Part shown: piece after piece, positions 9,410 through 60,879 of the stretch
How positions within the stretch are numbered: the stretch's first letter is position 1
Layout: each line of letters starts with the position of its first letter
Origin: an uncultured Candidatus Saccharibacteria bacterium
GTDB taxonomy: Bacteria; Patescibacteriota; Minisyncoccia; Phycocordibacterales; DSPV01
Length of the DNA: 64,000 nt
Assembly (NCBI GenBank): GCA_964574355.1
Contig: CAZNMD010000003.1
Coordinates: forward strand, 5,316-69,315
Direction: 5' to 3'
Notes under the pieces: model-generated
Told to the model about the DNA's origin: nothing
What the model saw: only the letters and a program-made list of their open reading frames with translations
Databases searched by the model: none
Position numbers and translations under genes: made by a program

Positions 9410-9433
9410 TCTCCACACGTCTTTATGACGATC

Positions 9434-9471
9434 GAGGAGCGTACAGCGATAAGCTGGCGCTCCTTTTTTTA
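9434..9471 (+). terminator. Rho-independent terminator of the 8042..9409 gene.
   Basis: GAGGAGCG…(inner CAGC-gataa-GCTG)…CGCTCCTT followed by TTTTTTT. Confidence 0.7.
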
Positions 9472-9495
9472 TTCAATCAATGATACGATTCGGTT

Positions 9496-10836: not shown

Positions 10837-10843
10837 CAAACTA

Positions 10844-10877
10844 CTACTTGACATACATCAAGTAGTATGATAAATTG
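10844..10877 (+). promoter_or_regulatory. Perfect 9-bp inverted repeat ACTACTTGA-cataca-TCAAGTAGT with an embedded TTGACA, and a putative -10 (TAAATT) 17 nt downstream. It is a candidate promoter/operator for the sigma-factor gene.
   Basis: Read directly between the murD stop and the sigma gene. Confidence 0.4.
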
Positions 10878-10889
10878 AGTTAGGTTCTG

Positions 10890-10914
10890 TATACCAGAAG
10901 GTATACGGTTTTTC
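10890..10914 (+). terminator. Small hairpin GTATACC-agaa-GGTATAC followed by GGTTTTT. It could be a weak terminator or an attenuator-like element.
   Basis: 7-bp AT-rich stem plus a T-run. Confidence 0.3.
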
Positions 10915-10942
10915 TAAGAACTTTGTAACAAAGGAGAATAGA

Positions 10943-11710
10943 GTGAATACAACGCCTGCCAAGGACGTACCGGTTGAAGGTGAAGAACAGCAATTCTTGA
11001 ACTATCTACGGTTTACGGTTCAGATAGTTCAAACAATACTGAGTCGTCTACCTCCGCATGTCGAAAAAGATGATTTGCTATCAGTAGGACAGCTTGGTTT
11101 GCTGAAGGCGATTCGGACGTTTGATCCAAGCAAAGGTTCTACCTTCGGTGCGTATGCTCGTCATCGTATTCGCGGGGTAGTCCTCGATGAATTGCGAAAG
11201 ATGGATATCTTTCCTCGTTCGGTTCGCGAGAGAGCTCGAATGGTCGCCGAGGTGGAAGATTGTTTGGTGAATAGGTTGGGTCGGGAACCAACAGAGATGG
11301 AAATGGCGTCAGAGATGGGGCTCGGTCTTGCGGCCTATCGTAAACTGAGATCTGAGATCCAACCTGTAGACTTTTTGTGTCTTGACGATCTACCATCTTG
11401 GTTGAAAAACAACCACTATGATCATGGGCGTCATGATTGTTATGACGCTATTGCCGACCAAAGTCTTCCGCTCGGTGAGGAACTCGAGCGTCGGGATATG
11501 TTGGCGGTGGTTTATCACTCGATCAAGAGTCTTCCTCCAAGACAGCAACAAGTGCTCGCGCTGTATTACGTTGAAGGGTGGACTTTTCGAGAAATTGGAG
11601 AAGCTCTTGGTTTTACTGAGAGCTATGCTTGTATGGTTCACAAAGAGGCAATTGTGACGCTTCGTGAACATTTCCAAAAAGAAGATCGACGCTGTACATT
11701 GGCTGGGTAG
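10943..11710 (+). CDS. RNA polymerase sigma factor of the FliA/WhiG (sigma-28) family.
   Basis: 255 aa. GTG start 6 nt after AAAGGAG. Region 2 …FGAYARHRIRGVVLDELRKMD…. Region 4 …VLALYYVEGWTFREIGEALGFTESYACMVHKEAIVTLR. Confidence 0.8.
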   Translation: MNTTPAKDVPVEGEEQQFLNYLRFTVQIVQTILSRLPPHVEKDDLLSVGQLGLLKAIRTFDPSKGSTFGAYARHRIRGVVLDELRKMDIFPRSVRERARMVAEVEDCLVNRLGREPTEMEMASEMGLGLAAYRKLRSEIQPVDFLCLDDLPSWLKNNHYDHGRHDCYDAIADQSLPLGEELERRDMLAVVYHSIKSLPPRQQQVLALYYVEGWTFREIGEALGFTESYACMVHKEAIVTLREHFQKEDRRCTLAG

Positions 11711-19287: not shown

Positions 19288-20738
19288 TAAAAATTTTGTT
19301 TATAACTACATTCGTTATATATGCGTTTACGCAAAACGCATATGCCCAGGTAGTGATAAACGAGATTATGTATGATGTTGCGGGAGGTGACGATGGCCAC
19401 GAATGGATTGAGGTAAAAAATACAGGTACTACGGCTATCGATCTTTCCTTGTATCGCTTTTTTGAGGCGGGAGTACATCATAAACTTAGTGCTGTTTTAG
19501 GTACGACTCTTTCTTCTGGCGGGTATGCAGTTATTGCTGATGATGCAGTAAAATTTCAAATTGATTTTCCTTCTTTTTCCGGAGTTCTTTATGACAGTTC
19601 ATTTTCTCTTTCAAATGTGGGGGAAACACTTTCTATAAAGCTTGACGATAGTGTTATTGATTCTGTGAGTTATGTTCCGAGTGAGTTAGCTAATGGTACT
19701 GGTGCCACACTTCAGAAGGTTGGATCGTCTTTTGTTTCGCTTGCTGCTACTCCTGGAGCTTCATCTGATGCAGGGAATCCTGTTGTGAATGAACCACCTG
19801 GGACCGAAGATCCAAATACTCCAAGTAATCAATCTTCACAAAATTCATCGAGTGGAAGTGGAGGAACAGTAGCTGATCCTGATCCGACTCGAATTGTTCC
19901 AGATGCGGGGGCGGATCAAACTGTGATTGCGGGCGCGCCTGTCCTTATGTCTGGTAAAGCCAGTATTGGAGGAAAACCAGTTTCTGATACAGCACGCTTT
20001 TTGTGGAATTTCGGAGACGGCGCCACGTTTATTGGCCGTACCACAAATCATGTGTATCGATCGCCTGGACGATATGTGGTCTCGCTTTCTGTGTCTTCTG
20101 GTGAAACGAGTGCTACCGATATGCTTACCATCACTGTTGTTGAATCGCCAATATCGATTGCGTCAACGGTTCCTGGTCCGGAGGGGTATGTCTCCTTATT
20201 CAATGCCTCGAAAGGTGTTGTTGATATTTCAACATGGTATCTTCAGGTTAAAGAACAGATATTTGTTTTTCCTCCCGGTACGTTTATTGCTGGTTCATCG
20301 GTTGTGCGTTTTGATGCGGCTATAACCAGGCTTTCTTTCGCTTCACCTCAAGAAGTGTTTTTGCGTTTTCCAAATGGAAAAGAGGCTTCTGTTGGTATAC
20401 AGGATGTTGTTACCCCAAAAGCTGCTGTTTCTGTTCAGGCGACCCCAAAACCTCACGTTGATCAATCAAAAATGACAACAGCTCCTGAAAAGGGTCTTTC
20501 AAAGAGCCTTGTTGTGGAAGCTGTTCCAGAAACACGCAAAGAAGAGGATGTTACAGATAAACTTTTACAAGGGGCATTAGTGGAAGAAACGATTGATCAG
20601 GGTCAAACACAAAAGAGTGGGATGTTTTGGTGGTATGGTGCACTTGTACTGGTTTTGGCTCTTGGCACGGTCGGAGTGATTTTGATTGAGAAAAAGAAGC
20701 CAGTGGACGAGTTTGAGATAATTGAGGCAGACGAGTAG
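19284..20738 (+). CDS. Secreted lamin-tail-domain (LTD)–PKD–LTD-like protein with a C-terminal TM anchor.
   Basis: Signal peptide MIKILFITTFVIYAFTQNAYA. LTD motif VVINEIMYDVAGGDDGHEWIEVKNTGTTAIDLS. PKD motif FLWNFGDGATF…HVYRSPGRY. C-terminal TM WWYGALVLVLALGTVGVILI. Its start overlaps the upstream stop (ATGA). Confidence 0.65.
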   Translation: MIKILFITTFVIYAFTQNAYAQVVINEIMYDVAGGDDGHEWIEVKNTGTTAIDLSLYRFFEAGVHHKLSAVLGTTLSSGGYAVIADDAVKFQIDFPSFSGVLYDSSFSLSNVGETLSIKLDDSVIDSVSYVPSELANGTGATLQKVGSSFVSLAATPGASSDAGNPVVNEPPGTEDPNTPSNQSSQNSSSGSGGTVADPDPTRIVPDAGADQTVIAGAPVLMSGKASIGGKPVSDTARFLWNFGDGATFIGRTTNHVYRSPGRYVVSLSVSSGETSATDMLTITVVESPISIASTVPGPEGYVSLFNASKGVVDISTWYLQVKEQIFVFPPGTFIAGSSVVRFDAAITRLSFASPQEVFLRFPNGKEASVGIQDVVTPKAAVSVQATPKPHVDQSKMTTAPEKGLSKSLVVEAVPETRKEEDVTDKLLQGALVEETIDQGQTQKSGMFWWYGALVLVLALGTVGVILIEKKKPVDEFEIIEADE

Positions 20739-23873: not shown

Positions 23874-25610
23874 ATGCAACAGAATATACAAAAACGTGCA
23901 CCGGTGTTGGTTCTGGGAGATAGTATGCGAAGTACGCTCGCGGTTGTTCGATCGTTGGGGCGACGGGGTATTTCTGTGCATCTTGGTGTGTCTTACGTAA
24001 CCCTTTCTGTTACACGTTCCAAGTATGTGAGGCGTGTCATTGTATTACCCTCGGAGAAACACCACCGTTCTGCCTGGCTTCAGACGCTCCTTAAGATTGT
24101 CGAGGAGACGTCATACTCGCTCTTGATTCCGACGACTGAAGGGGTTGCGCTTCCGGTGATTGAAGACCAAAAAGTCATTGAGCCTTTTGTTCGCCTTGCC
24201 GTCCCTTCCTTTTCTTTGTTTGAAGAGACGTTTGATAAAAGAAAAACGGTCGAACTTGCAAAGGCTTCTAATGTCCCTTTTCCAAAAACAGCAATCATAG
24301 AAACAGAACAGATGTTGGAAGAAATTCTAGGAAAGGCAACATTTCCCCTTGTTATTAAACCAGCATTTTCAAAGAAAACGACCAAAGAAAACCAGGTTGG
24401 GCTGAGTGTGAGCGTTGCGAAAACGAAAGAGGAGGCTCGTGAACTGGCTTTGGTTCGATTACGTCAGGTGCCGGTTCTTTTTCAGGAGTATGTTGCAGGG
24501 GTTGGTGTTGGGCAAGAATTTTTGTGTGACAATGGAAAAATTCTTCTTTCATTTCAACATGAGCGAGTCCGAGAACAGTCAGGAAGTGGGGGAAGTACAT
24601 ATCGGGTGAGTGCTTCACTTCATCCAGGCATGCTAGAAGCGTCAAAGAAAATGCTTGAAAAGATTAACTGGACGGGGGTTGTTATGGTTGAGTATCGTTG
24701 GAATAAAGATACTGATTCTTTTTTTCTTATAGAGATTAATGGGAGGTTGTGGGGTTCGTTGCCGCTTCCAGTCGCTCTTTCGGTTGATTTTCCGTATGCC
24801 ATGTATTCTTTTTTTGTCGAAGGGAAAAAAGATTTTTCGGGAACGTATAAAACAGGAGTGTATGGGCGTGATGTTTTTTCCGATGTTCGTCTTTTGTTAA
24901 GGTTGTCACGTTCTTTGGGAGTCATGTTTTTGATGAAGGAATTTTTTGTTGCTTTTAGTCGGATTATGATGGGGCGCGAACGGTGGGATATGGTTGCTTT
25001 TGACGATATGTATCCTGCACTTAAAGAGACTATGCGAGTTGCTAAAAAAGAGTTTGAACAATTGAGTCGTGCTGTAGGTGTTGTGGTACGAAACAAGGTA
25101 CGTCGTTTATCGGTTACCAAGCGATTAAAAACCGAGTGTATTAATTCTCTTGCTGAGGCAAAAAATATTTTGTTTGTGTGTTATGGGAACGTTAACCGTA
25201 GTGTTTTCGCTGAGCAGTATACCCGAAGTATTCTTTCCGAAAAACAAAAAGAATTTTTTACAGTACGGTCGGCAGGAACAATTTCAAAAGAGGGCAGAGA
25301 GGCCTCTTTTGAGGCACAAGAAATCGCGAAAAAATATGGTGTGTCGCTCGATACACACCGTTCTGTTTCGGTTTCCCCAAAGATTATTGATGAAGCTGAT
25401 CTTATTTTTTATGTTGATACGAAAACTCGTAATGAATTGTTGAGTCGTTTTTCTGGAGCGGCAAAAAAAATGTATCCATTAAGTTTTCTTGCCAGTGACG
25501 TGCCGGAAGAAATTGATGATCCTTATGGTAAGGATAGTGATTACTTTAGAAGGGTATTTGATTATATAAAGAAGAGCGTTGATGCTTTGTATGTACATAT
25601 GAAGCCGTGA
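23874..25610 (+). CDS. Fusion protein: an N-terminal ATP-grasp ligase domain (about 420 aa) joined to a C-terminal low-molecular-weight protein-tyrosine-phosphatase domain.
   Basis: ATP-grasp end motif …FLIEINGRLWGS…. LMW-PTP P-loop ILFVCYGNVNRSVFAEQY (C-x5-R-S) and a DPYG general-acid motif. Confidence 0.7.
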   Translation: MQQNIQKRAPVLVLGDSMRSTLAVVRSLGRRGISVHLGVSYVTLSVTRSKYVRRVIVLPSEKHHRSAWLQTLLKIVEETSYSLLIPTTEGVALPVIEDQKVIEPFVRLAVPSFSLFEETFDKRKTVELAKASNVPFPKTAIIETEQMLEEILGKATFPLVIKPAFSKKTTKENQVGLSVSVAKTKEEARELALVRLRQVPVLFQEYVAGVGVGQEFLCDNGKILLSFQHERVREQSGSGGSTYRVSASLHPGMLEASKKMLEKINWTGVVMVEYRWNKDTDSFFLIEINGRLWGSLPLPVALSVDFPYAMYSFFVEGKKDFSGTYKTGVYGRDVFSDVRLLLRLSRSLGVMFLMKEFFVAFSRIMMGRERWDMVAFDDMYPALKETMRVAKKEFEQLSRAVGVVVRNKVRRLSVTKRLKTECINSLAEAKNILFVCYGNVNRSVFAEQYTRSILSEKQKEFFTVRSAGTISKEGREASFEAQEIAKKYGVSLDTHRSVSVSPKIIDEADLIFYVDTKTRNELLSRFSGAAKKMYPLSFLASDVPEEIDDPYGKDSDYFRRVFDYIKKSVDALYVHMKP

Positions 25611-36220: not shown

Positions 36221-37282
36221 ATGCTTTGGACAAAAAAGGATAAAGTCGCTCTTATAACGGGTATTACTGGCCAAGACGGGAGCTATTTGGCTGAATTTTT
36301 GCTGAAGAAAGGCTATATGGTTCATGGTATTATTCGCCGGGCAAGTACGTTTAATACATCGCGAATCAATCATATTTTTGAAGATCCTCATACTCCGGGT
36401 AAGAGACTTATTTTGCACTACGGTGATTTAACGGATAGTACTAATATTGCAAAACTGATTAGAAATATTAGGCCAGATGAAATTTATCATTTGGGTGCCC
36501 AAAGTCATGTTCGGGTTAGTTTTGATATTCCAGAATATACGGCAGACGCAACAGGTGTTTCGACTGTACGACTTCTTGAAGCAATTCGTGAATCGGGTGT
36601 GGATACAAAGTTCTATCAAGCGTCATCTTCTGAGATGTTTGGTAAGGTGCTTGAAGTTCCCCAAAAAGAAACAACACCATTTTATCCTCGATCACCATAT
36701 GGTGCCGCAAAAGTATTTGCGTATTGGCTGACCGTTAATTATCGTGAGAGCTATAACATGTTTGCTGTGAATGGGATTCTTTTTAATCACGAATCTCCGC
36801 GCCGAGGTGAAACATTTGTTACTCGAAAAATTACTCGTGGTTTAGCGCGTATTAAGCTTGAGCTGGAGACAACTCTCTTTTTGGGAAATTTGCACGCAAA
36901 GCGTGATTGGGGCTATGCGCCTGATTATGTTGAAGCCATGTGGTTAATGCTTCAGCATGATACACCGGAAGATTTTGTTATTGCCACAGGAGAAACTCAT
37001 ACAGTGCGAGAATTTGTTGAAGAGGCTTCACGGGCGATTGGTTTTGATCTTGTATGGAAAGGTGAGGGAGTAGACGAGGTTGGGGTTGATAAGAAAACAG
37101 GTAAGGTTATTCTTCGAATTGATAAGAATTATTTTCGTCCAACTGAAGTTGATTTATTAATTGGCGATGCGTCGAAAGCAAAAAGGCTTCTTGGGTGGGA
37201 GCCATCAGTGCGATTTCATGAGCTTGTCGATATAATGGCTAAAGCAGATTATGAACGCGAAAAAAGATTGGCCGGTAAATAA
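36221..37282 (+). CDS. gmd: GDP-mannose 4,6-dehydratase.
   Basis: [35 protein letters not shown]…. Confidence 0.9.
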
Positions 37283-37288: not shown

Positions 37289-38458
37289 ATGTTTATAAAA
37301 CTTATCAAATCGACATTTCATAACGAGAAAGAAACAAAGCGCCGATTAGTTAAGTTTATTGAAGGTGCACGATCTCTTTCTATGGGTGAACAGTGCCGGA
37401 ATTTTGAGGAACAGTTTGCCAAAAAACAGGGAAGAAAATATGCAGTTTTTGTAAACAGTGGTTCCTCTGCAAATCTTGTTTTGATCCAAGCTCTTTTGAA
37501 TCTTGGGCGCTTGAAGCAGGGTGATAGGGTTGGTGTATCGGCGATTACCTGGGCAACAAACGTTATGCCAATTCTTCAAATGGGTTTACAACCTGTCGCT
37601 ATTGATTGCGAGCTTTCAACTCTTAATATTTCTTCAAAAACTCTCGCTCCACATCTTAAGGGTTTGAAGGCTTTATTTTTAACCAATGTTCTTGGATTTT
37701 CATCCGATATTAGCGCAATCAAAAACGCCTGTGCTAAGGCTAAAGTAATGCTTCTGGAAGATAATTGTGAATCTTTAGGTTCAAAGGTTGATGGTAAACT
37801 ACTTGGCAATTTTGGTCTCGCAGCCACATTTTCTTTTTTTGTTGGACACCATCTTTCAACAATTGAAGGTGGGATGGTTGTGACCGATGACGAAAAATTG
37901 CACGATATGTTGGTGATGGTTCGCGCTCATGGGTGGGATCGGCACTTACCTTTACATAAACAGAAAAAACTAAGGACACGTCACGAGATTGATGAACACT
38001 ATGGTAAGTATACATTTTATGAGCTCGCATATAATGTTCGGCCAACTGAAATTCAAGGATTTTTAGGACTTGAATCTTTGCGTTACTGGGATGAAATTGT
38101 CGGTGCTCGTGAGCAAAATTTTCATAAAATTTTTTCAGCAGTTCTTGATCATAAAGATTTTCATAATCTTGATGTTTCCCATATGGATATTGTTTCCAAT
38201 TTTGCCTTTCCTGTTATTGCCAAAAGTGAACGTCTTGCAAAAGAGTATCGAAAGCGTTTTGAAAATGCTGGTGTTGAAGTTCGGCCGATTATTTCTGGCG
38301 ATATTACTCTCCATCCATTTTGGAAAAAGTATGTGGGCACAGCCCCTATCTTAAAAAATAGTCGTACGGTTCACTATCAAGGTTTCTATTTTGGCAATAA
38401 TCCCGATCTCACGAAAAAAGAAATTGATTTTTTATGCTCACTATTTTCCGTTAAATAA
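37289..38458 (+). CDS. DegT/DnrJ/EryC1/StrS-family PLP-dependent sugar aminotransferase/dehydratase (perosamine-synthase-like).
   Basis: …FEEQFAKKQGRKYAVFVNSGSSANLVLIQAL…. Confidence 0.75.
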   Translation: MFIKLIKSTFHNEKETKRRLVKFIEGARSLSMGEQCRNFEEQFAKKQGRKYAVFVNSGSSANLVLIQALLNLGRLKQGDRVGVSAITWATNVMPILQMGLQPVAIDCELSTLNISSKTLAPHLKGLKALFLTNVLGFSSDISAIKNACAKAKVMLLEDNCESLGSKVDGKLLGNFGLAATFSFFVGHHLSTIEGGMVVTDDEKLHDMLVMVRAHGWDRHLPLHKQKKLRTRHEIDEHYGKYTFYELAYNVRPTEIQGFLGLESLRYWDEIVGAREQNFHKIFSAVLDHKDFHNLDVSHMDIVSNFAFPVIAKSERLAKEYRKRFENAGVEVRPIISGDITLHPFWKKYVGTAPILKNSRTVHYQGFYFGNNPDLTKKEIDFLCSLFSVK

Positions 38459-49047: not shown

Positions 49048-50421
49048 GTGTGTTGTTTAGGTAAAATGAAAACAGTTATTATTCCTCTTTTTGACGGTAT
49101 GATTGCTCGGAATATTTTGCATACGGACGTTGCGAGTATTTTACGTGATCAGGGAATTAGAATCGTAATTATTCCCCCTGAAGGAAAGAGTGATTTGTAT
49201 GTAAAAAAATTTTCTGACGGAAAAACAACTTTTGTTGAGTCCTCTGATGATGCGTGGAAGAATTCTAGACTCGATTCCATTCTTCTTAATCTTTTTCTCC
49301 AATCAATCCCGACCCGTTTTATGCGTATTCGGCAAGTGGATTGGTATTTACATAATAAAAAATATATTCACTATGTTGTGGTTACTGTGCTCCGATTTTT
49401 GGGACGTTTCAAATTGTACAGAGCTCTTATAAGGAAGGTTGCTCTTTTTCAACCTATTAAACCACGCGCCAGAGAAATTTTTGAAAAATGGAAACCTGAT
49501 GCAGTTTTTGCCCCCACAATGATTTCTGGAATTGAAGTAGCTCTTCTTCGTCTAGCAAAAGAAAAAGGGAAAATTACGATTGGTATGGCAAAATCGTGGG
49601 ATAACTTTACGAGTAAGGCGTTTATTCGGGTTTTTCCTGACTGGATTATTGTGCACAACGAGTTGCAAATTGAAGAAGCTGCGACCCTCTTTGATTATCC
49701 TCGTGACAAAGTTAAAGTGACTGGAATTCCGCAAATGGATCATTATCGAGACGATTCTTTTGTTGAGACAAGGATTGAATTTTGTAAAAAACTTGGTTTA
49801 GATCCAGAGAAGAAAATTATTTTGTATGCGCCGGCTGGTGATTGGATGAATCCAAATGACAAGGAAACGCTAGAAATTATTCTTGATTGGATTAACGATG
49901 GAACGTTGTCAAATTGCCAAGTGTTATTACGACTCCATCCTGGGTATCATTCACGAACTGAAGAGTTAAAGGGTAGGGCGAATCTTATTGTTGAACGTCC
50001 CGGTAAACATTTCGGAGTCCGTTTGAAGTCTGTTGAATTTGAAGAAGATGATATGCGGCATCTTGCCTCTTCTTTGAAACACAGTGCTGTCGTTTTGCAC
50101 ACGGCGTCTACTATTGGTATGGAGGCGGCGTATCTTGACCGTCCGGTTATTCATATTGGGTTTGATGGAAAGCAAAAATTGTCTTACTGGAAATCTGTTG
50201 TTCGCTACTACGACCGTGAACATTGCGTGCCACTTGTTGCGTCGGGGGGAGGGCGGTTAGTAAAAGATAGTAGAGAGCTTAAGCAGGCTCTTTTAGCCTA
50301 TCTCACTACCCCTTCCTTGGATCATGAGGGGCGTGAGCGGTTGGTTTCAATGCTATGCTACAAGCCTGATGGTCATGCTGGTAGGAGGTTGGGGGAATTT
50401 CTTGTTCAAAAAATAAAATGA
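49048..50421 (+). CDS. CDP-glycerol glycerophosphotransferase (TagB/TagF)-like protein.
   Basis: …HTASTIGMEAAYLDRPVIHIGFD…. Confidence 0.45.
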   Translation: MCCLGKMKTVIIPLFDGMIARNILHTDVASILRDQGIRIVIIPPEGKSDLYVKKFSDGKTTFVESSDDAWKNSRLDSILLNLFLQSIPTRFMRIRQVDWYLHNKKYIHYVVVTVLRFLGRFKLYRALIRKVALFQPIKPRAREIFEKWKPDAVFAPTMISGIEVALLRLAKEKGKITIGMAKSWDNFTSKAFIRVFPDWIIVHNELQIEEAATLFDYPRDKVKVTGIPQMDHYRDDSFVETRIEFCKKLGLDPEKKIILYAPAGDWMNPNDKETLEIILDWINDGTLSNCQVLLRLHPGYHSRTEELKGRANLIVERPGKHFGVRLKSVEFEEDDMRHLASSLKHSAVVLHTASTIGMEAAYLDRPVIHIGFDGKQKLSYWKSVVRYYDREHCVPLVASGGGRLVKDSRELKQALLAYLTTPSLDHEGRERLVSMLCYKPDGHAGRRLGEFLVQKIK

Positions 50422-51833
50422 TGTTTTATCAAAACGTGAATGAACAGAAAATAGTAACGCCACTTAGAAGGTTGTGGTATTTTGCCCTGATACTCTTTTT
50501 TGTTGCTCTTTTTGCTCGACTTTTAGTGTTTGGGGGATTAATTGCGTATGACGGACCAGTTAAAGGGTTTGTGTTTGGTGATGGAACTCGTTATTTTGGT
50601 CTTGCTGAAAGTGTTGTAGAGGGTCGGGGGTATGTGTATGAAGACGGCATTGAGTCATATCGACCTCCTGGTTACCCGGCCTATCTTATGCCATTTATTT
50701 TTCTCGGGCTTCCTGTTTGGTTTGCTGTGTTCGTTCAGCTTCTTATTGCTTCCTGTATACCAGTTGCAGTTTTGTTTGTGGCGACGCGTTCTTTTCATTT
50801 ACCATTGTGGGTTGGTATGGTCGCGGGTCTTTTTGCTGCTCTTGAGCCTGTTCAAGTTTTTTACAGCGTAACTCTCACTCCCGACGTTTTTTTTACCGTA
50901 GGTCTTTTTCTTTCTCTTTATTTTCTTGTTCGGTATGTTGAGACAGGGTGGTGGATGAATATGGTGTTTGCCGGGTTAGCCCTTGGGTGTGCAAATTATA
51001 TGAGGCCTGCCGGTATATATGCCGCGTTTGTTTTGATCGCTAGTCTGTGGGTATTTTTGTTTATAAAAAATCTTTTTTCTAAAAAAAGTATTATTCACGG
51101 AATGCTTTTTGTTGCGGTTTCTGTTCTTACGATTGTTCCGTGGTGTATTCGAAATTATTATACGTTCGATTCATTTTCGTTCGTTTCTTCCAGCGCCTAT
51201 ACTTTTTTTGCATATGGTGGAGTTGCAACACAAGCGGTTGCTGATAATCGAGATTATAACGTTGTTAAAAAAGAATTTCTTAATGAGCTTGCTCAAAAGG
51301 CTCCGGATCCATTACGTCCGACGAGTCTTCGAAATAAATCGTATTTAGTCGATAAGACAATTAACGTTATTAAGCAACATCCAGTTGCCTACATAAAAAC
51401 CTACCTTCTTGGCGTTAATACTCTCTTTTTTTCAGGTAACTATCATTACCTCCTTTCTCGATACAAGTTGATTGATCGCCCTGACGGACTCGTTTCTTTT
51501 TCTCTCGTTTTTGCTTCTGAAGGTTTTTTTGGTTTATTAAAGGCTATTTCTCGGCTTATTTTTGAACCATATGTTTTGTTGGCTGTAGCCGGAAAAATCA
51601 TGTGGATGGGACTTGTTTTGTGTTCAGTTGTGGGGGCGATTGTTATGCGTCGTCACCCGTTAGCAATACTTTTTTTGGCAAGCATGTTTTATTTTGCGGT
51701 AACAATTTTAGCGACAACAATTGGGGTGGAAGCGAGACATCGTTATGCTTTGAATCCTCTCATTTTCCTCTTTGTCTCGGTTGTGTTTTACTTACTCTAT
51801 GAAAAAGGTATCCGTCGTCGCGCCGGTCTTTAA
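50418..51833 (+). CDS. GT-C-fold glycosyltransferase (ArnT / PMT family 39/83-like).
   Basis: Polytopic protein of about 11 TM helices. …YRPPGYPAYLMPF…. Confidence 0.6.
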   Translation: MMFYQNVNEQKIVTPLRRLWYFALILFFVALFARLLVFGGLIAYDGPVKGFVFGDGTRYFGLAESVVEGRGYVYEDGIESYRPPGYPAYLMPFIFLGLPVWFAVFVQLLIASCIPVAVLFVATRSFHLPLWVGMVAGLFAALEPVQVFYSVTLTPDVFFTVGLFLSLYFLVRYVETGWWMNMVFAGLALGCANYMRPAGIYAAFVLIASLWVFLFIKNLFSKKSIIHGMLFVAVSVLTIVPWCIRNYYTFDSFSFVSSSAYTFFAYGGVATQAVADNRDYNVVKKEFLNELAQKAPDPLRPTSLRNKSYLVDKTINVIKQHPVAYIKTYLLGVNTLFFSGNYHYLLSRYKLIDRPDGLVSFSLVFASEGFFGLLKAISRLIFEPYVLLAVAGKIMWMGLVLCSVVGAIVMRRHPLAILFLASMFYFAVTILATTIGVEARHRYALNPLIFLFVSVVFYLLYEKGIRRRAGL

Positions 51834-54219: not shown

Positions 54220-54936
54220 ATGAATATTATCGCTATTATTCCGGCACGGGGCGGTTCCAAGGGAGTATTAGGGAAAAACGTAAAGTTATTGGAGGGAAAG
54301 CCTCTGATTGCGTGGACCATAGAAGCGGCAAAGGCGGTGCCGTTAATCAGTCGCGTTATTGTGAATACTGATGATGCGGAAATAGCAAAGGTATCAAAAA
54401 AATATGGTGCTGAAATTTTTGACCGACCGAAAGAATTAGCCGAAGATTTAACGCTTGATTTTCCTGTCTTTGAGCATCATTTGCATGATCTTGAAAAAAA
54501 AGGTGAGTTGCCCGATATGGTTGTTGATTTACGTGCGACAGCGCCGCTTCGACAATCACATCGAATCGCTGAGGGTATCGAGTTGCTTATTAAGGCAGGA
54601 CAAAAGAAAGCTGATTCGGTTCGTGCAGTTTCTAAAGCTGCTAAGCATCCGTACAAAATGTGGAAACTTCAAAATGGATTTATCCAACCATTTCTTCCGG
54701 AATCATTTACGGGGATGAAAGAGCCGTATAATGCTGCCCGCCAAATGCTTCCACCGGTATTTCAAAATAATGGCAGTATGAATGCGTTTTGGCCAGAAGT
54801 TGTTTTAAAGAAAAAAAGCATGACAGGTGAGAAAATTTTGGGCTATAGTATGGAAGATTGGGAGTCGGTAAATATTGATAGTGAGATTGATTTTTTACTC
54901 GCTGAAGAGTTAATGAAAAAACATCTTAAGAAATAA
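54220..54936 (+). CDS. neuA: CMP-nonulosonic-acid (N-acylneuraminate) cytidylyltransferase.
   Basis: MNIIAIIPARGGSKGVLGKNVKLLEGKPLIAWTI…. Confidence 0.8.
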   Translation: MNIIAIIPARGGSKGVLGKNVKLLEGKPLIAWTIEAAKAVPLISRVIVNTDDAEIAKVSKKYGAEIFDRPKELAEDLTLDFPVFEHHLHDLEKKGELPDMVVDLRATAPLRQSHRIAEGIELLIKAGQKKADSVRAVSKAAKHPYKMWKLQNGFIQPFLPESFTGMKEPYNAARQMLPPVFQNNGSMNAFWPEVVLKKKSMTGEKILGYSMEDWESVNIDSEIDFLLAEELMKKHLKK

Positions 54937-54946
54937 CCGTACTGAT

Positions 54947-56023
54947 ATGGCATATAAAGCAAAAATTTTTGGAGCGGGTTCAATCGGTAATCATTTGGCG
55001 CAAGCGTGTCGTCGGGCAGGGTGGGATGTGGTGGTTGTTGATCGGGACCCAAAAGCGTTGAAACGGATGAAAGAGGAAATTTATCCAACACGTTATGGTG
55101 CATGGGATGACGCCATCCAACTTTTTGAATCTGGCAAGGACCCGAAAGGTAGCTTCGATGCTATTTTTATCGGAACGCCGCCCCATGTGCGTATGCCGAT
55201 TGCCATGGAAGCACTTGCAGAAAAACCAAAAGTGCTTCAGTTGGAAAAACCCCTTGGTATGCCATCTTTGGAGGGTATTGCACCGTTTGTTGCGAAGGTA
55301 AAAAAAGGAAAAACTGCGGTGATTGTGGGCTATGATCATTCTGTTTCGGATGCGGCAGAGTTTATTGTTTCACTTCTCAGATCAAATACGATTGGTGGCA
55401 TTGAAACACTTGATGTTGAATTTCGTGAACATTGGGGAGGAATATTTAAGGCCCACCCATGGCTTTCTGGGCCAGCTGATACATACTTGGGTTTTACAGA
55501 AAAAGGTGGTGGCGCATCAGGTGAGCATTCACACGCGATGCACTTGTGGATTTATTTGGCTAAAATTGCAGGCTTTGGTTCACCGAAAGGGGTTTCAGCA
55601 ATGTATGAATGGCGAAAAGAAGGAAAAGCGGTTTATGATGCGATTGCAACATTTTCACTTTTAACGGATAAAAAGAAAGTTGGTCGCGTTGTTCAAGATG
55701 TGGTGACATCACCAACTCGAAAGTGGATCCGCGTGCAAGGAAAAAATGGTTTTATTGAGTGGTACTGCAATGGTAAGCCAGAGGGTGACCATGTTATTTG
55801 GAAGGTTGGTGATCAGCCGATTAGCGAAAAAGTTTTTCCCAAAAAACGTCCCGATGATTTTTTCCGTGAAGTACAGCATATAGAGGCGATTCTTTCAGGT
55901 AAGGTGAAAGCAAAAGATTCTCCGATGTCGCTTCAGAATGCTCTTGATGTTATGAGTGTTCTTTCGGCTGCAAGGAAAAAGAAAGGGGTTGTTTCGACGC
56001 CTGTAAAATTAATAAAGGCCTAG
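54947..56023 (+). CDS. Gfo/Idh/MocA-family oxidoreductase.
   Basis: KIFGAGSIGNHLAQACRRAGWDVVVVDRD…. Confidence 0.6.
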   Translation: MAYKAKIFGAGSIGNHLAQACRRAGWDVVVVDRDPKALKRMKEEIYPTRYGAWDDAIQLFESGKDPKGSFDAIFIGTPPHVRMPIAMEALAEKPKVLQLEKPLGMPSLEGIAPFVAKVKKGKTAVIVGYDHSVSDAAEFIVSLLRSNTIGGIETLDVEFREHWGGIFKAHPWLSGPADTYLGFTEKGGGASGEHSHAMHLWIYLAKIAGFGSPKGVSAMYEWRKEGKAVYDAIATFSLLTDKKKVGRVVQDVVTSPTRKWIRVQGKNGFIEWYCNGKPEGDHVIWKVGDQPISEKVFPKKRPDDFFREVQHIEAILSGKVKAKDSPMSLQNALDVMSVLSAARKKKGVVSTPVKLIKA

Positions 56024-56031
56024 TGTGCTTG

Positions 56032-56059
56032 TTGACTTTTTTGTGAAGCATAGTATTTT
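56032..56059 (+). promoter_or_regulatory. Promoter-like TTGACT-N16-TATTTT. Its -10 lies only about 8 nt before the ATG, so the mRNA may be leaderless.
   Basis: Read directly. Confidence 0.35.
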
Positions 56060-56067
56060 GCGTTTGT

Positions 56068-56739
56068 ATGTCGCACTTAGTTCTTTCATTTGATGTTGAT
56101 GGGACACTCACAAGGCGTGGTGAGCCGCTTAAACAAGAAGCGTGGGATCTACTTCTACGTGGTCGACCAATGGATGTATGGGAAGCGCTGCTCAAGGCTC
56201 GGGATAAGTATTCTGGAGGCAAGGGTTCTCGGTACGATATTATTCGAGAAATGCTCCAAGAAATTGGTGTTACAGGCGGAGAGCTTGAGATGAAAACAGA
56301 AGAGTGGGCAGAAGCATATCAGGTGGCGGTCATGTCGCTGATCCGTGCTGATTTTCGGCCAGAAGCGAGATCGGTCTTGGAGACTCTCAAAGAGCGATAT
56401 AGGCTCTATGTGAATTCCGCGACAGAAGAGGAAGGCCTGAAGAGGTGTTTAGCGGAAGTTGATTTCTCACAATTCTTCGAAGAGATATTTGGCTACCCCA
56501 AAGATGGTAGTCGAAAGAAAACTGACAACCTCCGGTTGATTCTTCAGGTTGAAGGCGTGGACCCAGAACGTTTGATTCACGTCGGTGATTCAAAATCTGA
56601 TGTCGACGCGGCTCACGCGGTCGGGTGTATCTTTATTGGTGTTGCAAATGATGACAATAGGTGGGTTCCAGAGCGAGAACCCTTTGTCGTAGTTCATTCG
56701 CTTTCTGACCTCGAAGAGGCTATCGACACTGTTTTATAG
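56068..56739 (+). CDS. HAD-superfamily phosphatase. It is the G+C-rich 'island F'.
   Basis: Motif I FDVDGTL. Motif IV …GDSKSDVDAA…. GC-rich codons. Confidence 0.65.
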   Translation: MSHLVLSFDVDGTLTRRGEPLKQEAWDLLLRGRPMDVWEALLKARDKYSGGKGSRYDIIREMLQEIGVTGGELEMKTEEWAEAYQVAVMSLIRADFRPEARSVLETLKERYRLYVNSATEEEGLKRCLAEVDFSQFFEEIFGYPKDGSRKKTDNLRLILQVEGVDPERLIHVGDSKSDVDAAHAVGCIFIGVANDDNRWVPEREPFVVVHSLSDLEEAIDTVL

Positions 56740-56756
56740 GAGAACACAAAAAAGTA

Positions 56757-56786
56757 AACGCTACCCCTTGCACGGGTGGCGTTTTT
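56757..56786 (+). terminator. Terminator of the HAD gene.
   Basis: AACGCTACCCC-ttgcac-GGGTGGCGTT followed by TTTT. Confidence 0.7.
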
Positions 56787-56804
56787 CACTATAGTGTACC
56801 CACG

Positions 56805-58352
56805 ATGCTAGAACGCAAGAAAAAGCCGTGGGAGAGAGAAAAACTTGATTTTACGGGTCTCTTTACCTTTGAATTGGCTAATAATCATGGTGGTTCGGTT
56901 GAACATGGCCGACGAATAATCAGGGAAGTTGGTACGGTGGCAAAAAAGGCAGGTATTAAGGCGGCGTTTAAATTTCAGTTTCGTGACTTAGATACCTTTA
57001 TTCATCCTGATTACCGAAACGATAGAAACAACAAACACATAGCTCGTTTCCTTGGTACAGCATTATCAAAGAAGCAATTTAAAGAACTTGTGGAAGAGGT
57101 TCGTGCGAATGGTTTTTATACGATGGCAACGCCGTTTGACGAGAAATCGGTTGAACTGATTGAAGAGCTTGATATTGATATTGCAAAAGTGGCTTCTTGT
57201 TCGGCGAAGGATTGGCCTCTCTTAGAACGTATTATTGAGGCCGGTAAACCAATCATTGCCTCAACTGGCGGGCTGACCCTTGAGGAAATTGATAATCTTG
57301 TTTCATTTCTTGATCATAAATATGCACATTTTGCGATTATGCACTGTGTTTCTATTTATCCAACTCCTGTTGAAAAACTTGAATTAAATCAGATACAGTT
57401 GCTGTGTCGACGTTACCCAGGAGTTGCGATTGGTTTTTCAACCCATGAGAGTCCTGATAACTACGAGGCAATTCAAGTTGCGTATACAAAAGGAGCTACT
57501 ATTTTTGAAAGACATGTTGGTATTCCAACAGAAACAGTCCCTCTAAATAAATATTCTTCAACTCCTGATCAGGTGGGGAAATGGATTGATTCATATAAAC
57601 GAGCAGTTGCTTCAGTTGGCAGTAGTGAACGGGGTGAGCCTGATCCAGATGAGGTTCGTGATTTAAAATCGTTGATGCGGGGCGTCTTTGCAAAACGAGA
57701 TATTCGTCCCGGTGAAGAGATTCAAAAAGAAGATGTGTTTTTTGCAATTCCTCTTATGCCTGGGCAAATGACTTCTGGTGAATGGAAGCCGGGATTTATT
57801 GCTTCGAGCGCTCTTACTCGAGGTGCGCCATTACCAGCATCAATGTCTGTTGGTAGAAAAGAAAAAGGGCAGTATGTCTATCGTATCGTACATGAAGTAA
57901 AAGGATTTCTTCGTGAGGCCGGTATACCAGTTGTTCCAAGTATGGACGTAGAACTTTCTCATCATTACGGTATCGAACATTTTAGAGAGGTTGGTGCAAC
58001 GATTATTGATTGTATTAATCGTGATTATTGCAAAAAAATTATTGTTGTGTTGCCGGGCCAGAGGCATCCTTATCATCATCACAAAAAGAAAGAAGAAACT
58101 TTTCACGTGCTTTCAGGAGAGTTGATAATAGAAATAGAGGGTAGGGAAAAAATACTTGTTCCTGGTGATATTCAGGTGGTTGAACGAGGAATTCGACATT
58201 CTTTTTGGTCAAAGAAAGGTGTTGTGTTTGAAGAGGTTTCAACTACACACTTTAATAACGATTCAATTTATGAGGATCCAGCTATAAACAAGATGGCTCG
58301 GGAGGAGCGTAAGACAAAACTTGTTAATTGGGGAAGGCACCAATTTGAATAA
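56805..58352 (+). CDS. Sialic-acid-synthase-like protein (NeuB TIM barrel + SAF domain) fused to a C-terminal cupin domain.
   Basis: …ELANNHGGSVEHGRRII… NeuB. …PGEEIQKEDVFFAIP… SAF. …PYHHHKKKEETFHVLSGELIIEIEG… cupin. Confidence 0.75.
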   Translation: MLERKKKPWEREKLDFTGLFTFELANNHGGSVEHGRRIIREVGTVAKKAGIKAAFKFQFRDLDTFIHPDYRNDRNNKHIARFLGTALSKKQFKELVEEVRANGFYTMATPFDEKSVELIEELDIDIAKVASCSAKDWPLLERIIEAGKPIIASTGGLTLEEIDNLVSFLDHKYAHFAIMHCVSIYPTPVEKLELNQIQLLCRRYPGVAIGFSTHESPDNYEAIQVAYTKGATIFERHVGIPTETVPLNKYSSTPDQVGKWIDSYKRAVASVGSSERGEPDPDEVRDLKSLMRGVFAKRDIRPGEEIQKEDVFFAIPLMPGQMTSGEWKPGFIASSALTRGAPLPASMSVGRKEKGQYVYRIVHEVKGFLREAGIPVVPSMDVELSHHYGIEHFREVGATIIDCINRDYCKKIIVVLPGQRHPYHHHKKKEETFHVLSGELIIEIEGREKILVPGDIQVVERGIRHSFWSKKGVVFEEVSTTHFNNDSIYEDPAINKMAREERKTKLVNWGRHQFE

Positions 58353-58437: not shown

Positions 58438-60879
58438 ATGAAAACTAATTTTTACTTAAAGACGGCTATTATCGGTGGGCTTTTTGCTGTTCCATTTGTT
58501 CCTCTCATTATTGCACCGTCACTTTTCTTTCCGTTTATTGCGGGTAAGGGCTTTGCTTTTCGTATTCTTGTTGAAATTATTTTTGCTCTCTGGCTCATTC
58601 TCGCACTTCGAGACCCTGAGTATCGTCCCCGCATGTCGCATCTTTTGACACTCACGTCTCTTTTTGTGGGCATTATTTTGCTCGCTGATATTTTTGGAGT
58701 TGCTCCGTATAAAAGTCTTTGGTCAAATTTTGAACGCATGGAAGGTTTTGTTTCTCTCCTCCATCACTTCTTGTATTTTATTGTTGCGGGTGCCATTCTC
58801 TCCACGGAACGTCTCTGGTCGCTATTCTTTCACACTTCAGTAGGGGTTTCGCTTTTTGTTGGTTTTTATTCAACGCTTCAATTGTTGGGTGAATTAGTTA
58901 TTAATCAGGGTGGTGTGCGTGTCGATGGGACATTTGGAAACGCTGCGTATCTTGCGGCATACTTGCTCATTCATATTTTTATTCTGTGCTTCTTTTTGTC
59001 GCGCGATCGTTTGTCTCGATCAGGTGATGTCCTTATCTCCGTTGCCCTTGGTTCTGTTTCGTTTTTAATTTATTACGGAATTCACATTGCGCGTTTGGGG
59101 ACTAGTGTTGTTCAAAATGCTGGAGCGTCGGTATTGGTTGTTGCTTTACTCCTTCTTACTGCATCTCTTTCAATTTATGCAACAAGCCGGCGGGCAATCT
59201 GGTATATTCGTTTTGGCGAGCCGATCGTCTATTCTCTGTCGATACTTTTTCTTGGTATTATTTTGGTGTATACCGCGACCCGCGGAGCAATTCTTGGACT
59301 TCTTGGGGGCGCCCTCTTGACCGCTCTTTTAGTTGTTTTGTTTGAGCGTGAGAACAAAACGGCGAGACGTGTTGGAATTGCCGCCCTTGTTGGTGTTGTT
59401 ATGGTTGTTGGAGCATTTTTTGTCCTTAAAGATTCGACCGTTGTTCGTGATCATCCAGTTTTGTCTCGTCTTGCTTCGATTAGTTTATCTGAAGGAACGC
59501 CACGTTTTACTATTTGGAATATCGGTTGGCAAGGTTTTCTAGAGAGACCGATTTTGGGATGGGGACAAGAAAATTTCAATTATTCTTTCAACACCCATTA
59601 CCATCCACGAATGTATGGCCAAGAGCAGTGGTTTGATCGGGCTCACAATATTTTCTTTGATTGGTTAACTGCGGGGGGTGTTTTGGGAATTCTCTCGTAC
59701 TTATCTTTATATGGTGCAGCCCTCTGGCTTATTTGGAAGCGAGATTTTAAAAAAGGTTGGCTCTCTCGGTTGATGGGGAAGATTCATTCTGTTCCTGATA
59801 ATAGTTTTTCAGTCACTGAACGGGCATTGTTAACGGGACTCCTGGCCGCGTATTTGTTTCAAAACATGTTTGTGTTCGATAACATCGTAACGTATATTTT
59901 GTTCTTTACGATTCTTGCATATATTCACGCTACACACAGTTCTCCTCTTTCTGATGTGTGGCAGAAAAGAATTTCTTTTGATCTTGGTTTTGTGAATAAA
60001 GTTCTTGCTCCGCTTATCGTCGTTATTCTTTTTGCGGGTATATACGTTATTAATATTAGACCCATTCAGGCCGGTTCAACCTTGATTCAAGGATTACGAA
60101 AGCAACAAGAGGGTGATCTTGATACTACCTATGCTAAATACCAAGAAGTTTTTGCCCTTAAGACGTTTGCTGATAGTGAGGCACGTGAACAGTTGATTCA
60201 AACAGCAATCAATGTTTCTAATAGTCCGAGTGTTGATGTAACGACCAAACAAAAGTTTTTAACTTTGGCAAAATCTGAACTTGAAAAACAGCTTGTTCGA
60301 ACTCCCAACGATGCTCGTTACGTCCTCTTTTTTGGATATCTTCTCAATAGGACAAATCAACCAAAAGAAGCACTTACGTATTTGAACAGGGCCGTTGATT
60401 TGTCTCCAAAAAAACAAACAATGTATTTCGAGCTCGGTAGTGCGTATCTTTCTGCAGGTTTGACGACGGAGGCGTATGAAACATTCAAGACTGCGTATGA
60501 ATTTGAGCCAAAATATAAAGATGCTGCTGTATTTTTTGCACTCGGTGCTATGTACAATGGGAAAAAGACTGAAGCGGTTACTGCGCTGAATCAAACGTAT
60601 GGAACCACAACGGTAAGCGATGATCGGTTGGTGAAAGCTTTTTTTGAGAAGCAAGAATGGGGCTTGTTGATGCCTATTCTTCTTTCAAGGGTTGCTTCAA
60701 GTCCAACAAATGATCAATACAGAATTAATTTAGCCGCAGCGTATCTTCAGATGAAACAGCCCCAAAAGGCAATTCAAGAACTTACCATTTTACGTGGTTT
60801 TGAAAGTGTGGATGCGGAAGGTAAGGCAATGATTGATCAATGGATTGCTGATATTAAGGCCGGACGAAACCCTCAGTAA
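58438..60879 (+). CDS. O-antigen-ligase (Wzy_C)-like polytopic membrane protein with a C-terminal TPR-repeat domain.
   Basis: About 12 TM helices in the first ~500 aa. TPR-like repeats occupy the last ~250 aa. Confidence 0.55.
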   Translation: MKTNFYLKTAIIGGLFAVPFVPLIIAPSLFFPFIAGKGFAFRILVEIIFALWLILALRDPEYRPRMSHLLTLTSLFVGIILLADIFGVAPYKSLWSNFERMEGFVSLLHHFLYFIVAGAILSTERLWSLFFHTSVGVSLFVGFYSTLQLLGELVINQGGVRVDGTFGNAAYLAAYLLIHIFILCFFLSRDRLSRSGDVLISVALGSVSFLIYYGIHIARLGTSVVQNAGASVLVVALLLLTASLSIYATSRRAIWYIRFGEPIVYSLSILFLGIILVYTATRGAILGLLGGALLTALLVVLFERENKTARRVGIAALVGVVMVVGAFFVLKDSTVVRDHPVLSRLASISLSEGTPRFTIWNIGWQGFLERPILGWGQENFNYSFNTHYHPRMYGQEQWFDRAHNIFFDWLTAGGVLGILSYLSLYGAALWLIWKRDFKKGWLSRLMGKIHSVPDNSFSVTERALLTGLLAAYLFQNMFVFDNIVTYILFFTILAYIHATHSSPLSDVWQKRISFDLGFVNKVLAPLIVVILFAGIYVINIRPIQAGSTLIQGLRKQQEGDLDTTYAKYQEVFALKTFADSEAREQLIQTAINVSNSPSVDVTTKQKFLTLAKSELEKQLVRTPNDARYVLFFGYLLNRTNQPKEALTYLNRAVDLSPKKQTMYFELGSAYLSAGLTTEAYETFKTAYEFEPKYKDAAVFFALGAMYNGKKTEAVTALNQTYGTTTVSDDRLVKAFFEKQEWGLLMPILLSRVASSPTNDQYRINLAAAYLQMKQPQKAIQELTILRGFESVDAEGKAMIDQWIADIKAGRNPQ

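Follow-up and report, generated by a model that had tools for sequence, protein, structure and literature searches.

A fused NeuB-SAF-cupin synthase within a widespread four-gene cassette on a Candidatus Saccharibacteria contig, with a possible role in making a nitrogen-free nonulosonic acid

We analysed a stretch of 64,000 nucleotides (the window; positions below count from its first letter) on contig CAZNMD010000003.1 of an uncultured Candidatus Saccharibacteria bacterium, and in particular four genes that resemble a module for the activation of nonulosonic, or sialic-acid-like, sugars with cytidine monophosphate (CMP). A first-pass annotation of the DNA had described four contiguous open reading frames (ORFs) here, and all of them were found at the positions given, on the plus strand. 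They are listed below, followed by the three domains of the last one, a synthase.

54220..54936, plus strand: CMP-nonulosonate-type cytidylyltransferase (NeuA/PseF-like), 238 residues (Pfam CTP_transf_3)
54947..56023, plus strand: Gfo/Idh/MocA-fold, NAD-dependent sugar oxidoreductase of a cassette-specific family, 358 residues (Pfam GFO_IDH_MocA)
56068..56739, plus strand: HAD-superfamily phosphatase with a C1-type cap (HAD-IA-like), 223 residues (Pfam Hydrolase/HAD_2)
56805..58352, plus strand: NeuB-SAF-cupin synthase, 515 residues (Pfam, AlphaFold2 model, Foldseek)
56859-57629, plus strand: NeuB TIM barrel of the synthase, about residues 19-275 (Pfam NeuB match at residues 45-274)
57681-57845, plus strand: SAF domain of the synthase, residues 293-347 (Pfam SAF)
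57858-58349, plus strand: D-lyxose/D-mannose-isomerase-type cupin of the synthase, residues 352-515 (Cupin_2 match at residues 413-469, Lyx_isomer)

The synthase matched the Pfam families NeuB at 148 bits (4e-43, cut-off 22.1) and SAF at 24.7 bits (3.5e-5, cut-off 21), and its C-terminal part matched both Cupin_2 (45.4 bits, 6.5e-12) and Lyx_isomer PF07385 (24.9 bits, 1.3e-5, cut-off 20.8). Its AlphaFold2 model had a predicted local distance difference test score (pLDDT) of 88.5. The possibility, raised in the first-pass annotation, that the cupin region is an artefact of a missed stop codon was excluded, because the cupin is conserved in the aligned homologues: the C-terminal 165 residues were among the best-conserved positions in an alignment of 21 homologues, and all of the best 120 database homologues carried both NeuB and Cupin_2, nearly all of them being about 502-525 residues long. 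A few of these 120 were longer, including two with an added CTP_transf_3 domain.

The three-domain architecture had been called unusual, but in the sense of rare it is not. Full-length copies were found in at least 80 species-representative genomes and on 52 contigs classed as viral in IMG/VR. With one genome taken per species, at least 588 genomes contained a relative of the synthase, and the best 80 matches were all covered to the end of the protein; these 80 came from Saccharibacteria, Paceibacteria, Elusimicrobia, Planctomycetota, Verrucomicrobiota, Chloroflexota, Acidobacteriota, Desulfobacterota, Alphaproteobacteria, Nitrospirales and Bacteroidota. Cultured carriers were Thalassospira sp. 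HF15, Desulfofustis glycolicus DSM 9705 and Rhodocytophaga aerolata KACC 12507. When the cupin was searched by itself against 1.84 billion cluster representatives, 117 clusters were retrieved at E <= 1e-30, most of which matched at residues about 345-505 of proteins of roughly 500 residues. One stand-alone cupin (P0267) adjoins a 345-residue NeuB; it was set aside as proof of a split architecture because other genes on the same contig are also split and a frameshift may be the cause. In the plasmid collection, NeuB/PseI-like genes at 25-33% identity were found but no tri-domain gene.

The N-terminal two thirds of the synthase matched the structural-genomics entry 3g8r at 8.6e-93, with 45% identity and a Foldseek template-modelling score (TM) of 0.91, whereas true NeuB reached about 1e-22 and PseI 5e-18 in the search of solved chains. 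Foldseek placed the synthase model at TM about 0.8, 24% identity and E of 1e-22 to 1e-25 from NeuB and PseI, and at 12-18% identity and E of about 1e-10 to 1e-11 from the 3-deoxy-D-manno-octulosonate-8-phosphate (KDO8P) and 3-deoxy-D-arabino-heptulosonate-7-phosphate (DAHP) synthases. The NeuB-family identity assigned earlier therefore held, as NeuB and PseI were nearer by Foldseek and no grouping with KDO8P/DAHP synthases was seen. Within the family, bit scores with solved chains and with equivalog models served to place the protein, instead of a reference phylogeny. It missed both the NeuB_NnaB equivalog TIGR03569 (143.9 bits, cut-off 399.65) and the PseI equivalog TIGR03586 (124.9 bits, cut-off 340.25), and its NeuB domain was as distant from NeuB as from PseI. 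These scores suggest that the NeuB part represents a deeply branching, uncharacterised clade, which has 3g8r as its single structure; our literature search found no functional study of that structure.

The catalytic core of the barrel is largely preserved. H214 and H237 align with the metal histidines His215 and His236 of Neisseria meningitidis NeuB (NmNeuB), K128 and S131 align with its Lys129 and Ser132, which bind phosphoenolpyruvate (PEP), and all four were invariant or nearly so among the 21 homologues. The position of NmNeuB Arg314, aligned through the mutated site of 4ipi, is occupied here by I315 in a variable hydrophobic column, and Glu134 of NmNeuB is replaced by an invariant Ser in the NeuB-cupin family. 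PDB entries 4ipi and 4ipj are the R314A and R314K mutants of NmNeuB, in which Arg314 is essential for catalysis.

For the cupin region, a profile search matched Bacillus subtilis YdaE (2y0o) at 4e-13 over residues 7-171 of 175, and Foldseek superposed the two at TM 0.71 with a root-mean-square deviation of 1.7 Å over 166 columns. The fold also matched Thermofilum lyxose isomerase (LI; 7nzo) and Escherichia coli O157 Z5688 (3kmh), and the solved lyxose isomerases among the matches include complexes with D-fructose and D-mannose. Residues H424, H426, K429, E431, H465 and E476 were invariant and align with the His-x-His...Lys-x-Glu...His...Glu pattern of YdaE. A cupin annotated as mannose-6-phosphate isomerase, 7zvm, matched as well (6e-7), and the equivalog for Gram-negative D-lyxose isomerases, NF051472, was missed (26.3 bits, cut-off 350). 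Judged by sequence and model, the cupin is a complete domain of the D-lyxose/D-mannose-isomerase type with its catalytic residues intact. An isomerase role had been suggested for it at the outset, and sequence, fold recognition and catalytic residues agree on an aldose-ketose isomerase of hexoses or pentoses.

The cytidylyltransferase matched Pfam CTP_transf_3 (PF02348) at 82 bits (6.5e-23, cut-off 22.6) and missed the PseF model TIGR03584 (130 bits, cut-off 205.7). Its nearest solved relatives were synthetases of CMP-N-acetylneuraminic acid (CMP-Neu5Ac), namely 6ifd (2e-34) and 1eyr (3.6e-19), whereas KdsB matched at 1e-5 and at the N-terminus only. The enzyme is thus far nearer to CMP-Neu5Ac synthetases than to KdsB, which agrees with the CMP-nonulosonic-acid-type module proposed in the first-pass annotation and argues for a nine-carbon acid. 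An eight-carbon product of the Kdo (3-deoxy-D-manno-octulosonate) type was rejected because the cytidylyltransferase is NeuA-like.

The oxidoreductase matched Pfam GFO_IDH_MocA weakly but above threshold (31.3 bits, 3.6e-7, cut-off 24), and its AlphaFold2 model had a pLDDT of 94. The GxGxxG motif (G9-x-G11-x-x-G14), D32 and the EKP motif (E100-K101-P102) were invariant. Foldseek aligned the model with sugar dehydrogenases at TM 0.72-0.80 and 13-19% identity, the matches including sulfoquinovosidases, scyllo-inositol dehydrogenase, 1,5-anhydrofructose reductase, WlbA, levoglucosan dehydrogenase and E. coli YjhC, the last of which acts on a sialic acid derivative. All Foldseek matches of this model were generic sugar dehydrogenases and gave no clue to its substrate.

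The phosphatase matched its Pfam family at 5.8e-17, and the DVDGT motif I is present in the translation. The best NCBIfam model was phosphoglycolate-phosphatase-like (50.6 bits, cut-off 225). A grouping with Neu5Ac-9-phosphate or KDO-8-phosphate phosphatases was not observed, as no solved KdsC, Kdn-9-phosphate or Neu5Ac-9-phosphate phosphatase (Kdn being the nitrogen-free 3-deoxy-D-glycero-D-galacto-nonulosonic acid) matched the protein at E <= 0.01. A word-index search with the phosphatase returned five close relatives only, too few to mine for fusions.

Linkage of the four genes was assessed by tblastn with the window proteins against 82 related loci spanning more than 10 phyla. A homologue of the cytidylyltransferase was present in 74 of the 82, one of the oxidoreductase in 68 (41-60% identity) and one of the HAD phosphatase in 57 (23-38% identity). 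Outside the candidate phyla radiation (CPR), the commonest order was oxidoreductase, NeuB-cupin, HAD, cytidylyltransferase. When all ORFs were clustered independently, the same four families alone were present in most loci, and the next commonest neighbours were methyltransferases, an NAD epimerase, and GT-B-like and Glyphos_transf-like proteins. The conserved core of the cassette loci contained neither an aminotransferase nor an acetyltransferase; a NeuC-like gene was found by the clustering in four loci only, and NeuC is absent from the 64-kb window. Some Bacteroidota (L052, L071, L082) have minimal cassettes of cytidylyltransferase and NeuB-cupin only. The partners are also found fused: NeuB-cupin with the cytidylyltransferase in four cases (P0017, P0063, L012, L046), and the oxidoreductase with the cytidylyltransferase (CTP_transf_3) in one (P0134). 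Two close relatives of the window, L083 and L084, whose synthases are 94% and 81% identical to ours, keep its gene order, which runs cytidylyltransferase, oxidoreductase, HAD, NeuB-cupin, Wzy, MurB, SecA. The four window genes represent one copy, at this locus, of a conserved cassette with a wide distribution. We found no paper on the NeuB-cupin family, on 3G8R, on the four-gene set or on nonulosonic acids of CPR bacteria, nor one that links Kdn with a lyxose/mannose isomerase for this family; in the literature found, the NeuB clade, the fusion to a lyxose-isomerase domain and the four-gene cassette are undescribed, and the component families and the logic of the pathway are already known.

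We see an even chance that the cassette makes a CMP-activated 3-deoxy-2-ulosonic acid without amino groups, of the Kdn type, by way of the isomerase-fused synthase. The C-terminal isomerase domain would produce a manno-configured aldose from a ketose of the fructose type, the SAF-capped NeuB barrel of the same protein would condense this aldose with PEP, the NeuA-like enzyme would couple the resulting ulosonic acid to CMP, and transferases encoded in the surrounding glycan island of roughly 40 kb would add the sugar to a surface polymer. In the order that we prefer, the HAD phosphatase would act first and dephosphorylate the ketose (e.g., fructose 6-phosphate to fructose), leaving the isomerase and the synthase to work on free sugars; we prefer it because characterised members of both fused families mostly use free sugars and because the minimal cassettes have no HAD. 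The Gfo/Idh/MocA enzyme may carry out a redox tailoring or an epimerisation of the ulosonic acid or of its CMP ester. The lack of amino-sugar genes, together with the loss of Arg314, argues for a nitrogen-free, Kdn-type product.

Several points weigh against this scheme. The isomerase domain carries family-specific basic residues, R406 and K411, that have no counterpart in the aligned free-sugar lyxose isomerases, and two more, R502 and K503, in its C-terminal tail, past the stretch that aligns with 2y0o; these four residues could bind phosphate. Substrates differ greatly among the characterised lyxose isomerases, so that the aldose may be one other than mannose, and no member of the NeuB clade, 3g8r included, has a known substrate. 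A plain Kdn route needs no oxidoreductase, yet the oxidoreductase is the best-conserved partner. HAD mostly lies between the synthase and the cytidylyltransferase, which fits a route of synthase and then phosphatase (a 9-phosphate route) equally well, and in the viral copies a small DxDxT protein directly follows the synthase.

Such a 9-phosphate route, which the first-pass annotation had favoured, is possible, although we rate it as somewhat unlikely. In it, the cupin would convert fructose 6-phosphate into mannose 6-phosphate, NeuB would make Kdn-9-phosphate, HAD would release Kdn, and CMP activation would follow. Bacteroides and animals use a route of this kind, the work on Bacteroides being cited in PMC9000132. 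It is consistent with the linkage of HAD in 57 of 82 loci, mostly between synthase and cytidylyltransferase, with the occurrence of a small DxDxT protein behind the synthase in 27 of the 52 viral loci, with the match to the mannose-6-phosphate-isomerase-annotated 7zvm and with the conserved extra basic residues of the isomerase domain. However, the cupin matched the free-sugar D-lyxose isomerases over their full length and better than it matched the phosphosugar cupin, about 30% of the cassettes have no HAD, and the HAD itself shows no specific similarity to the solved KdsC, Kdn-9-phosphate or Neu5Ac-9-phosphate phosphatases. The Kdn locus of Serratia marcescens also lacks a phosphatase (PMC9000132).

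The oxidoreductase leaves room for a different or modified sugar, which we regard as a tentative idea at best. It is kept in 68 of 82 loci at 41-60% identity and has no role in the known Kdn routes. Another non-aminated ulosonic acid would then be the product, either an epimer or keto derivative made by the oxidoreductase, an eight-carbon acid from D-lyxose, or a ten-carbon acid from a manno-heptose derived from sedoheptulose; we judge this unlikely. Lyxose isomerases take a wider range of manno-, lyxo- and talo-type substrates, and D-fructose and D-mannose complexes are among the matching structures. The equal distance of the NeuB clade from NeuB and PseI also speaks for the idea, as does a domain resembling RfaE domain II (heptose-1-phosphate adenylyltransferase-like) in three CPR loci, and there are mass-spectrometric hints of higher-carbon ulosonic acids in microbes (PMC8157484; bioRxiv 10.64898/2026.04.20.719630). 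On the other side, the NeuA/PseF-like cytidylyltransferase argues against an eight-carbon product, the minimal cassettes have no oxidoreductase, and the higher-carbon acids of Magnetospirillum, first read as acetylated or methylated acetamido/acetamidino relatives, appear to bear nitrogen (bioRxiv 10.64898/2026.04.20.719630). In a wider form, we suggest with some doubt that the cassette may be an unrecognised basis of a nitrogen-free nonulosonic or higher-carbon acid in more than 10 phyla, including CPR bacteria, and on IMG/VR viral contigs, and that the oxidoreductase may make an undescribed sugar rather than plain Kdn.

It is very improbable that the genes form a classical amino-nonulosonic module for Neu5Ac, legionaminic or pseudaminic acid with its precursor genes elsewhere: the NeuB and NeuA-like families are common to those pathways and a DegT aminotransferase lies 17 kb upstream, but the synthase scored far below the NeuB and PseI cut-offs (144 against 399.65 and 125 against 340.25), NmNeuB Arg314 is not conserved, the window lacks NeuC and the conserved core lacks amino-sugar genes, the DegT gene forms a pair with a GDP-mannose 4,6-dehydratase in what looks like a perosamine-type route, and the classical routes have no use for a fused aldose-ketose isomerase.

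The first-pass annotation had further described the HAD gene as a GC-rich inserted unit with its own promoter and terminator, perhaps translated from a leaderless mRNA. The signals around it are as follows.

56032..56059, plus strand: promoter-like TTGACT-16-TATTTT, ending 8 nt before the HAD ATG (consensus scan)
56756..56786, plus strand: terminator-like hairpin, AAACGCUACCC, a 7-nt loop and GGGUGGCGUUU, then UU (RNA fold)
56787..56796, plus strand: 10-bp perfect palindrome CACTATAGTG with a -10-like TATAGT, 9 nt before the NeuB start codon (read from the sequence)

The gene has a GC content of 0.479 against a window mean of 0.42 (standard deviation 0.038), and at third codon positions (GC3) 0.438 against 0.339 (standard deviation 0.076). 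These values are about 1.3-1.5 standard deviations above the window mean and rank it seventh of 49 ORFs for GC3; in L083 and L084 the GC excess was 1-4 points. The gene is thus somewhat richer in GC than the window, but mildly so, and is no outlier. The notion of an inserted unit did not survive the comparison of loci: HAD homologues recur in the same cassette in many phyla (57 of 82 loci), and L083 and L084 share the gene order, so that the HAD is a cassette member and not an insertion.

A promoter and a terminator around HAD are plausible from sequence comparison. Common to the window, L083 and L084 is a TTGAC(T/G) box separated by 16-17 nt from a -10-like hexamer, which lies 6-8 nt upstream of the HAD ATG, and the 11-bp hairpin with its U-run 3' of HAD is stable (-20 kcal/mol, z = -3.1 against shuffles) and almost identical in the two relatives, a T-to-C change in L084 turning a G.U pair into G-C. 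The position of the promoter-like site is therefore conserved, as is the hairpin, but the promoter match itself occurs at chance frequency (8 sites found in the region, 8.2 expected). The palindrome CACTATAGTG was invariant in all three. The 65-nt spacer between HAD and NeuB (56740-56804 in the window; 9936-10000 in L083 and L084) is nearly identical among them while the flanking proteins are only 81-94% identical, and no Rfam family matched it.

A leaderless HAD mRNA is also plausible but would be nothing special, as the same arrangement is seen at two other genes of the cassette: TATAAT lies 9 nt before the cytidylyltransferase ATG, and the NeuB gene is arranged likewise. Across the window, a TANNNT box at -17..-5 precedes 39% of the ORFs against a background of 12%, a Shine-Dalgarno-like motif precedes 12% against 9%, and -10-like boxes directly before start codons are enriched three to six times. 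This pattern suggests that leaderless or very short-leader mRNAs may be widespread in this genome. That HAD is a foreign gene, inserted recently and unconnected with the pathway, is hardly credible: its GC and GC3 are somewhat above those of its neighbours and a promoter-like site and a hairpin flank it, but it is part of the cassette in 57 of 82 loci across phyla, relatives at 94% and 81% identity keep the order with a small GC excess, its GC3 ranks seventh of 49, and -10 boxes adjacent to start codons are normal here.

The cassette lies at the end of the glycan-biosynthesis island mentioned above (roughly 40 kb, 20748-60879). The island contains several glycosyltransferase family 4 (GT4) genes, a GT2, a polysaccharide deacetylase, a GT47-like gene, GtrA, an asparagine-synthase-like amidotransferase, methyltransferases, a Wzx flippase, two TylF-type O-methyltransferases, a Glyphos_transf-like gene, a PMT_2 gene and a Wzy_C gene with tetratricopeptide repeats (TPRs). 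A GDP-mannose 4,6-dehydratase (36221-37282) adjoins the DegT aminotransferase (37289-38458), a perosamine-like pair. Taken from its listed TTG start, the GT2 ORF shares 62 nt (51772-51833) with the end of the PMT_2 ORF; an in-frame ATG at 51799 is an alternative start. Two products of the island are given here for context.

49048..50421, plus strand: Glyphos_transf-like GT-B protein (Pfam PF04464, 4.3e-11)
58438..60879, plus strand: Wzy_C (O-antigen ligase/polymerase-like) membrane protein with C-terminal TPRs (Pfam Wzy_C 1.3e-19, TPR)

Homologues of the Glyphos_transf-like protein occur near the cassette in 20 of the 82 loci and, in L002, directly upstream of the cytidylyltransferase, and we infer that it is a candidate transferase for the activated sugar. 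The Wzy_C-TPR gene is in the same position in L083 and L084.

The 52 IMG/VR contigs (L087-L138) carry the full NeuB-SAF-cupin gene at 37-50% identity; they are mostly low in GC, some being longer than 100 kb. A divergent CTP_transf_3 gene was found in 27 of these loci, just upstream of the synthase gene in a representative locus, and a DxDxT protein of 100 residues in 27, just downstream in the representative locus. Their other neighbours include a 4,6-dehydratase-like gene, a C-methyltransferase, a thiamine pyrophosphate enzyme and glycosyltransferases. A full-length match to the NeuB-SAF-cupin gene was found in none of 50,697 GenBank phage records. A further 28 viral contigs (L139-L166) encode a 3g8r-like NeuB at 36-43% identity without the cupin, the matches ending at about residue 316-346 (408 in one).

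The RfaE-domain-II-like nucleotidyltransferase domain was located in the three CPR loci within 8729-11548 (L012), 97-3105 (L046) and 3305-3715 (L021), and it scored 75 bits against the heptose-1-phosphate adenylyltransferase model (cut-off 181). In L012 and L046 it stands between the cytidylyltransferase and NeuB-cupin in single ORFs of 939 and 1002 residues. The domain is absent from the window. Elsewhere in the window, an ORF at 23874-25610 joins an ATP-grasp domain to a C-terminal low-molecular-weight phosphotyrosine phosphatase domain, 17305-20738 encodes a HerA/TrwB-like ATPase (resembling type IV secretion system coupling proteins) and then a protein with lamin-tail and PKD domains, and a 1751-residue ORF occupies 90-5345. 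Neither a tRNA gene nor an Rfam family at gathering score was found in the whole 64 kb.

If the proposed pathway is right, the cassette would be a concrete genetic marker for Kdn-type sugars in at least 80 species-level genomes, with related synthases in more than 500, and would offer a simple enzymatic way to such sugars that starts from a ketose and PEP, besides assigning a function to the orphan structure 3g8r. In CPR bacteria, it would point to surface polymers with an acidic, sialic-acid-like cap; host mimicry or adhesion had been suggested at the outset as the use of such sugars on a CPR symbiont, the CPR assignment here following the labels of the best hits. Given the IMG/VR copies, it is possible that viruses also employ this sugar to remodel host surfaces. 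By mass spectrometry, Kdn/Neu-type acids are about as frequent in environmental prokaryotes as the bacterial pseudaminic and legionaminic types (PMC8157484), and the known genetics of bacterial Kdn is confined to few cases (PMC9000132). The cassette may be linked to the Kdn-type acids that have been widely detected in environmental microbes (PMC8157484).

Compared with the NeuB/NeuA systems of N. meningitidis and E. coli K1, the cassette shares the PEP-dependent TIM barrel, the SAF cap, the metal histidines and the NeuA-type CMP activation. It differs in that the synthase is 24% identical and below the equivalog cut-off, Arg314 and Glu134 are not conserved and NeuC is missing, and it adds an isomerase domain, an oxidoreductase and an HAD to that pathway. 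The Kdn-9-phosphate route of Bacteroides thetaiotaomicron and the Neu5Ac-9-phosphate route of animals likewise bring together a synthase, an HAD phosphatase and a cytidylyltransferase, but an isomerase domain is missing from their synthases. In Bacteroides, the phosphatase is a KdsC-type HAD without a cap, whereas the HAD here carries a cap domain and matched a phosphoglycolate-phosphatase-like model best.

The Kdo pathway, KdsD-KdsA-KdsC-KdsB, consists of a SIS isomerase, a KDO8P synthase, a C0 HAD and KdsB. Its logic of ketose-to-aldose isomerisation, PEP condensation, HAD phosphatase and CMP activation is mirrored in the cassette, although every protein family differs and the synthase is 12-17% identical to KDO8P synthases. 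The cupin resembles YdaE (2y0o), Thermofilum LI (7nzo) and E. coli Z5688 (3kmh) in the fold of the whole domain and in the aligned metal and catalytic residues; unlike them, it is fused to a synthase, at 21-27% identity, and unlike 2y0o it continues beyond the aligned part into a conserved basic C-terminal tail, RKTKLxNWGRHQFD. The Chromobacterium violaceum protein of 3g8r ('SpsE') belongs to the same NeuB clade but has 350 residues and no cupin.

In Serratia marcescens, the KL1/KL2 Kdn capsule needs only neuA and a neuB with an extra sugar isomerase/epimerase domain (PMC9000132). As in our cassette, a NeuB fused to a sugar-isomerase-type domain is paired with NeuA, and the Serratia product is the nitrogen-free Kdn (PMC9000132). 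Compared by description, the extra domain of the Serratia protein is of the COG1082 type, unlike the cupin here, and the locus has neither oxidoreductase nor HAD. COG1082 is a TIM-barrel fold and not a cupin, which suggests that the two fusions arose independently. The isomerase-fused NeuB of Serratia is the nearest published precedent for the synthase described here.

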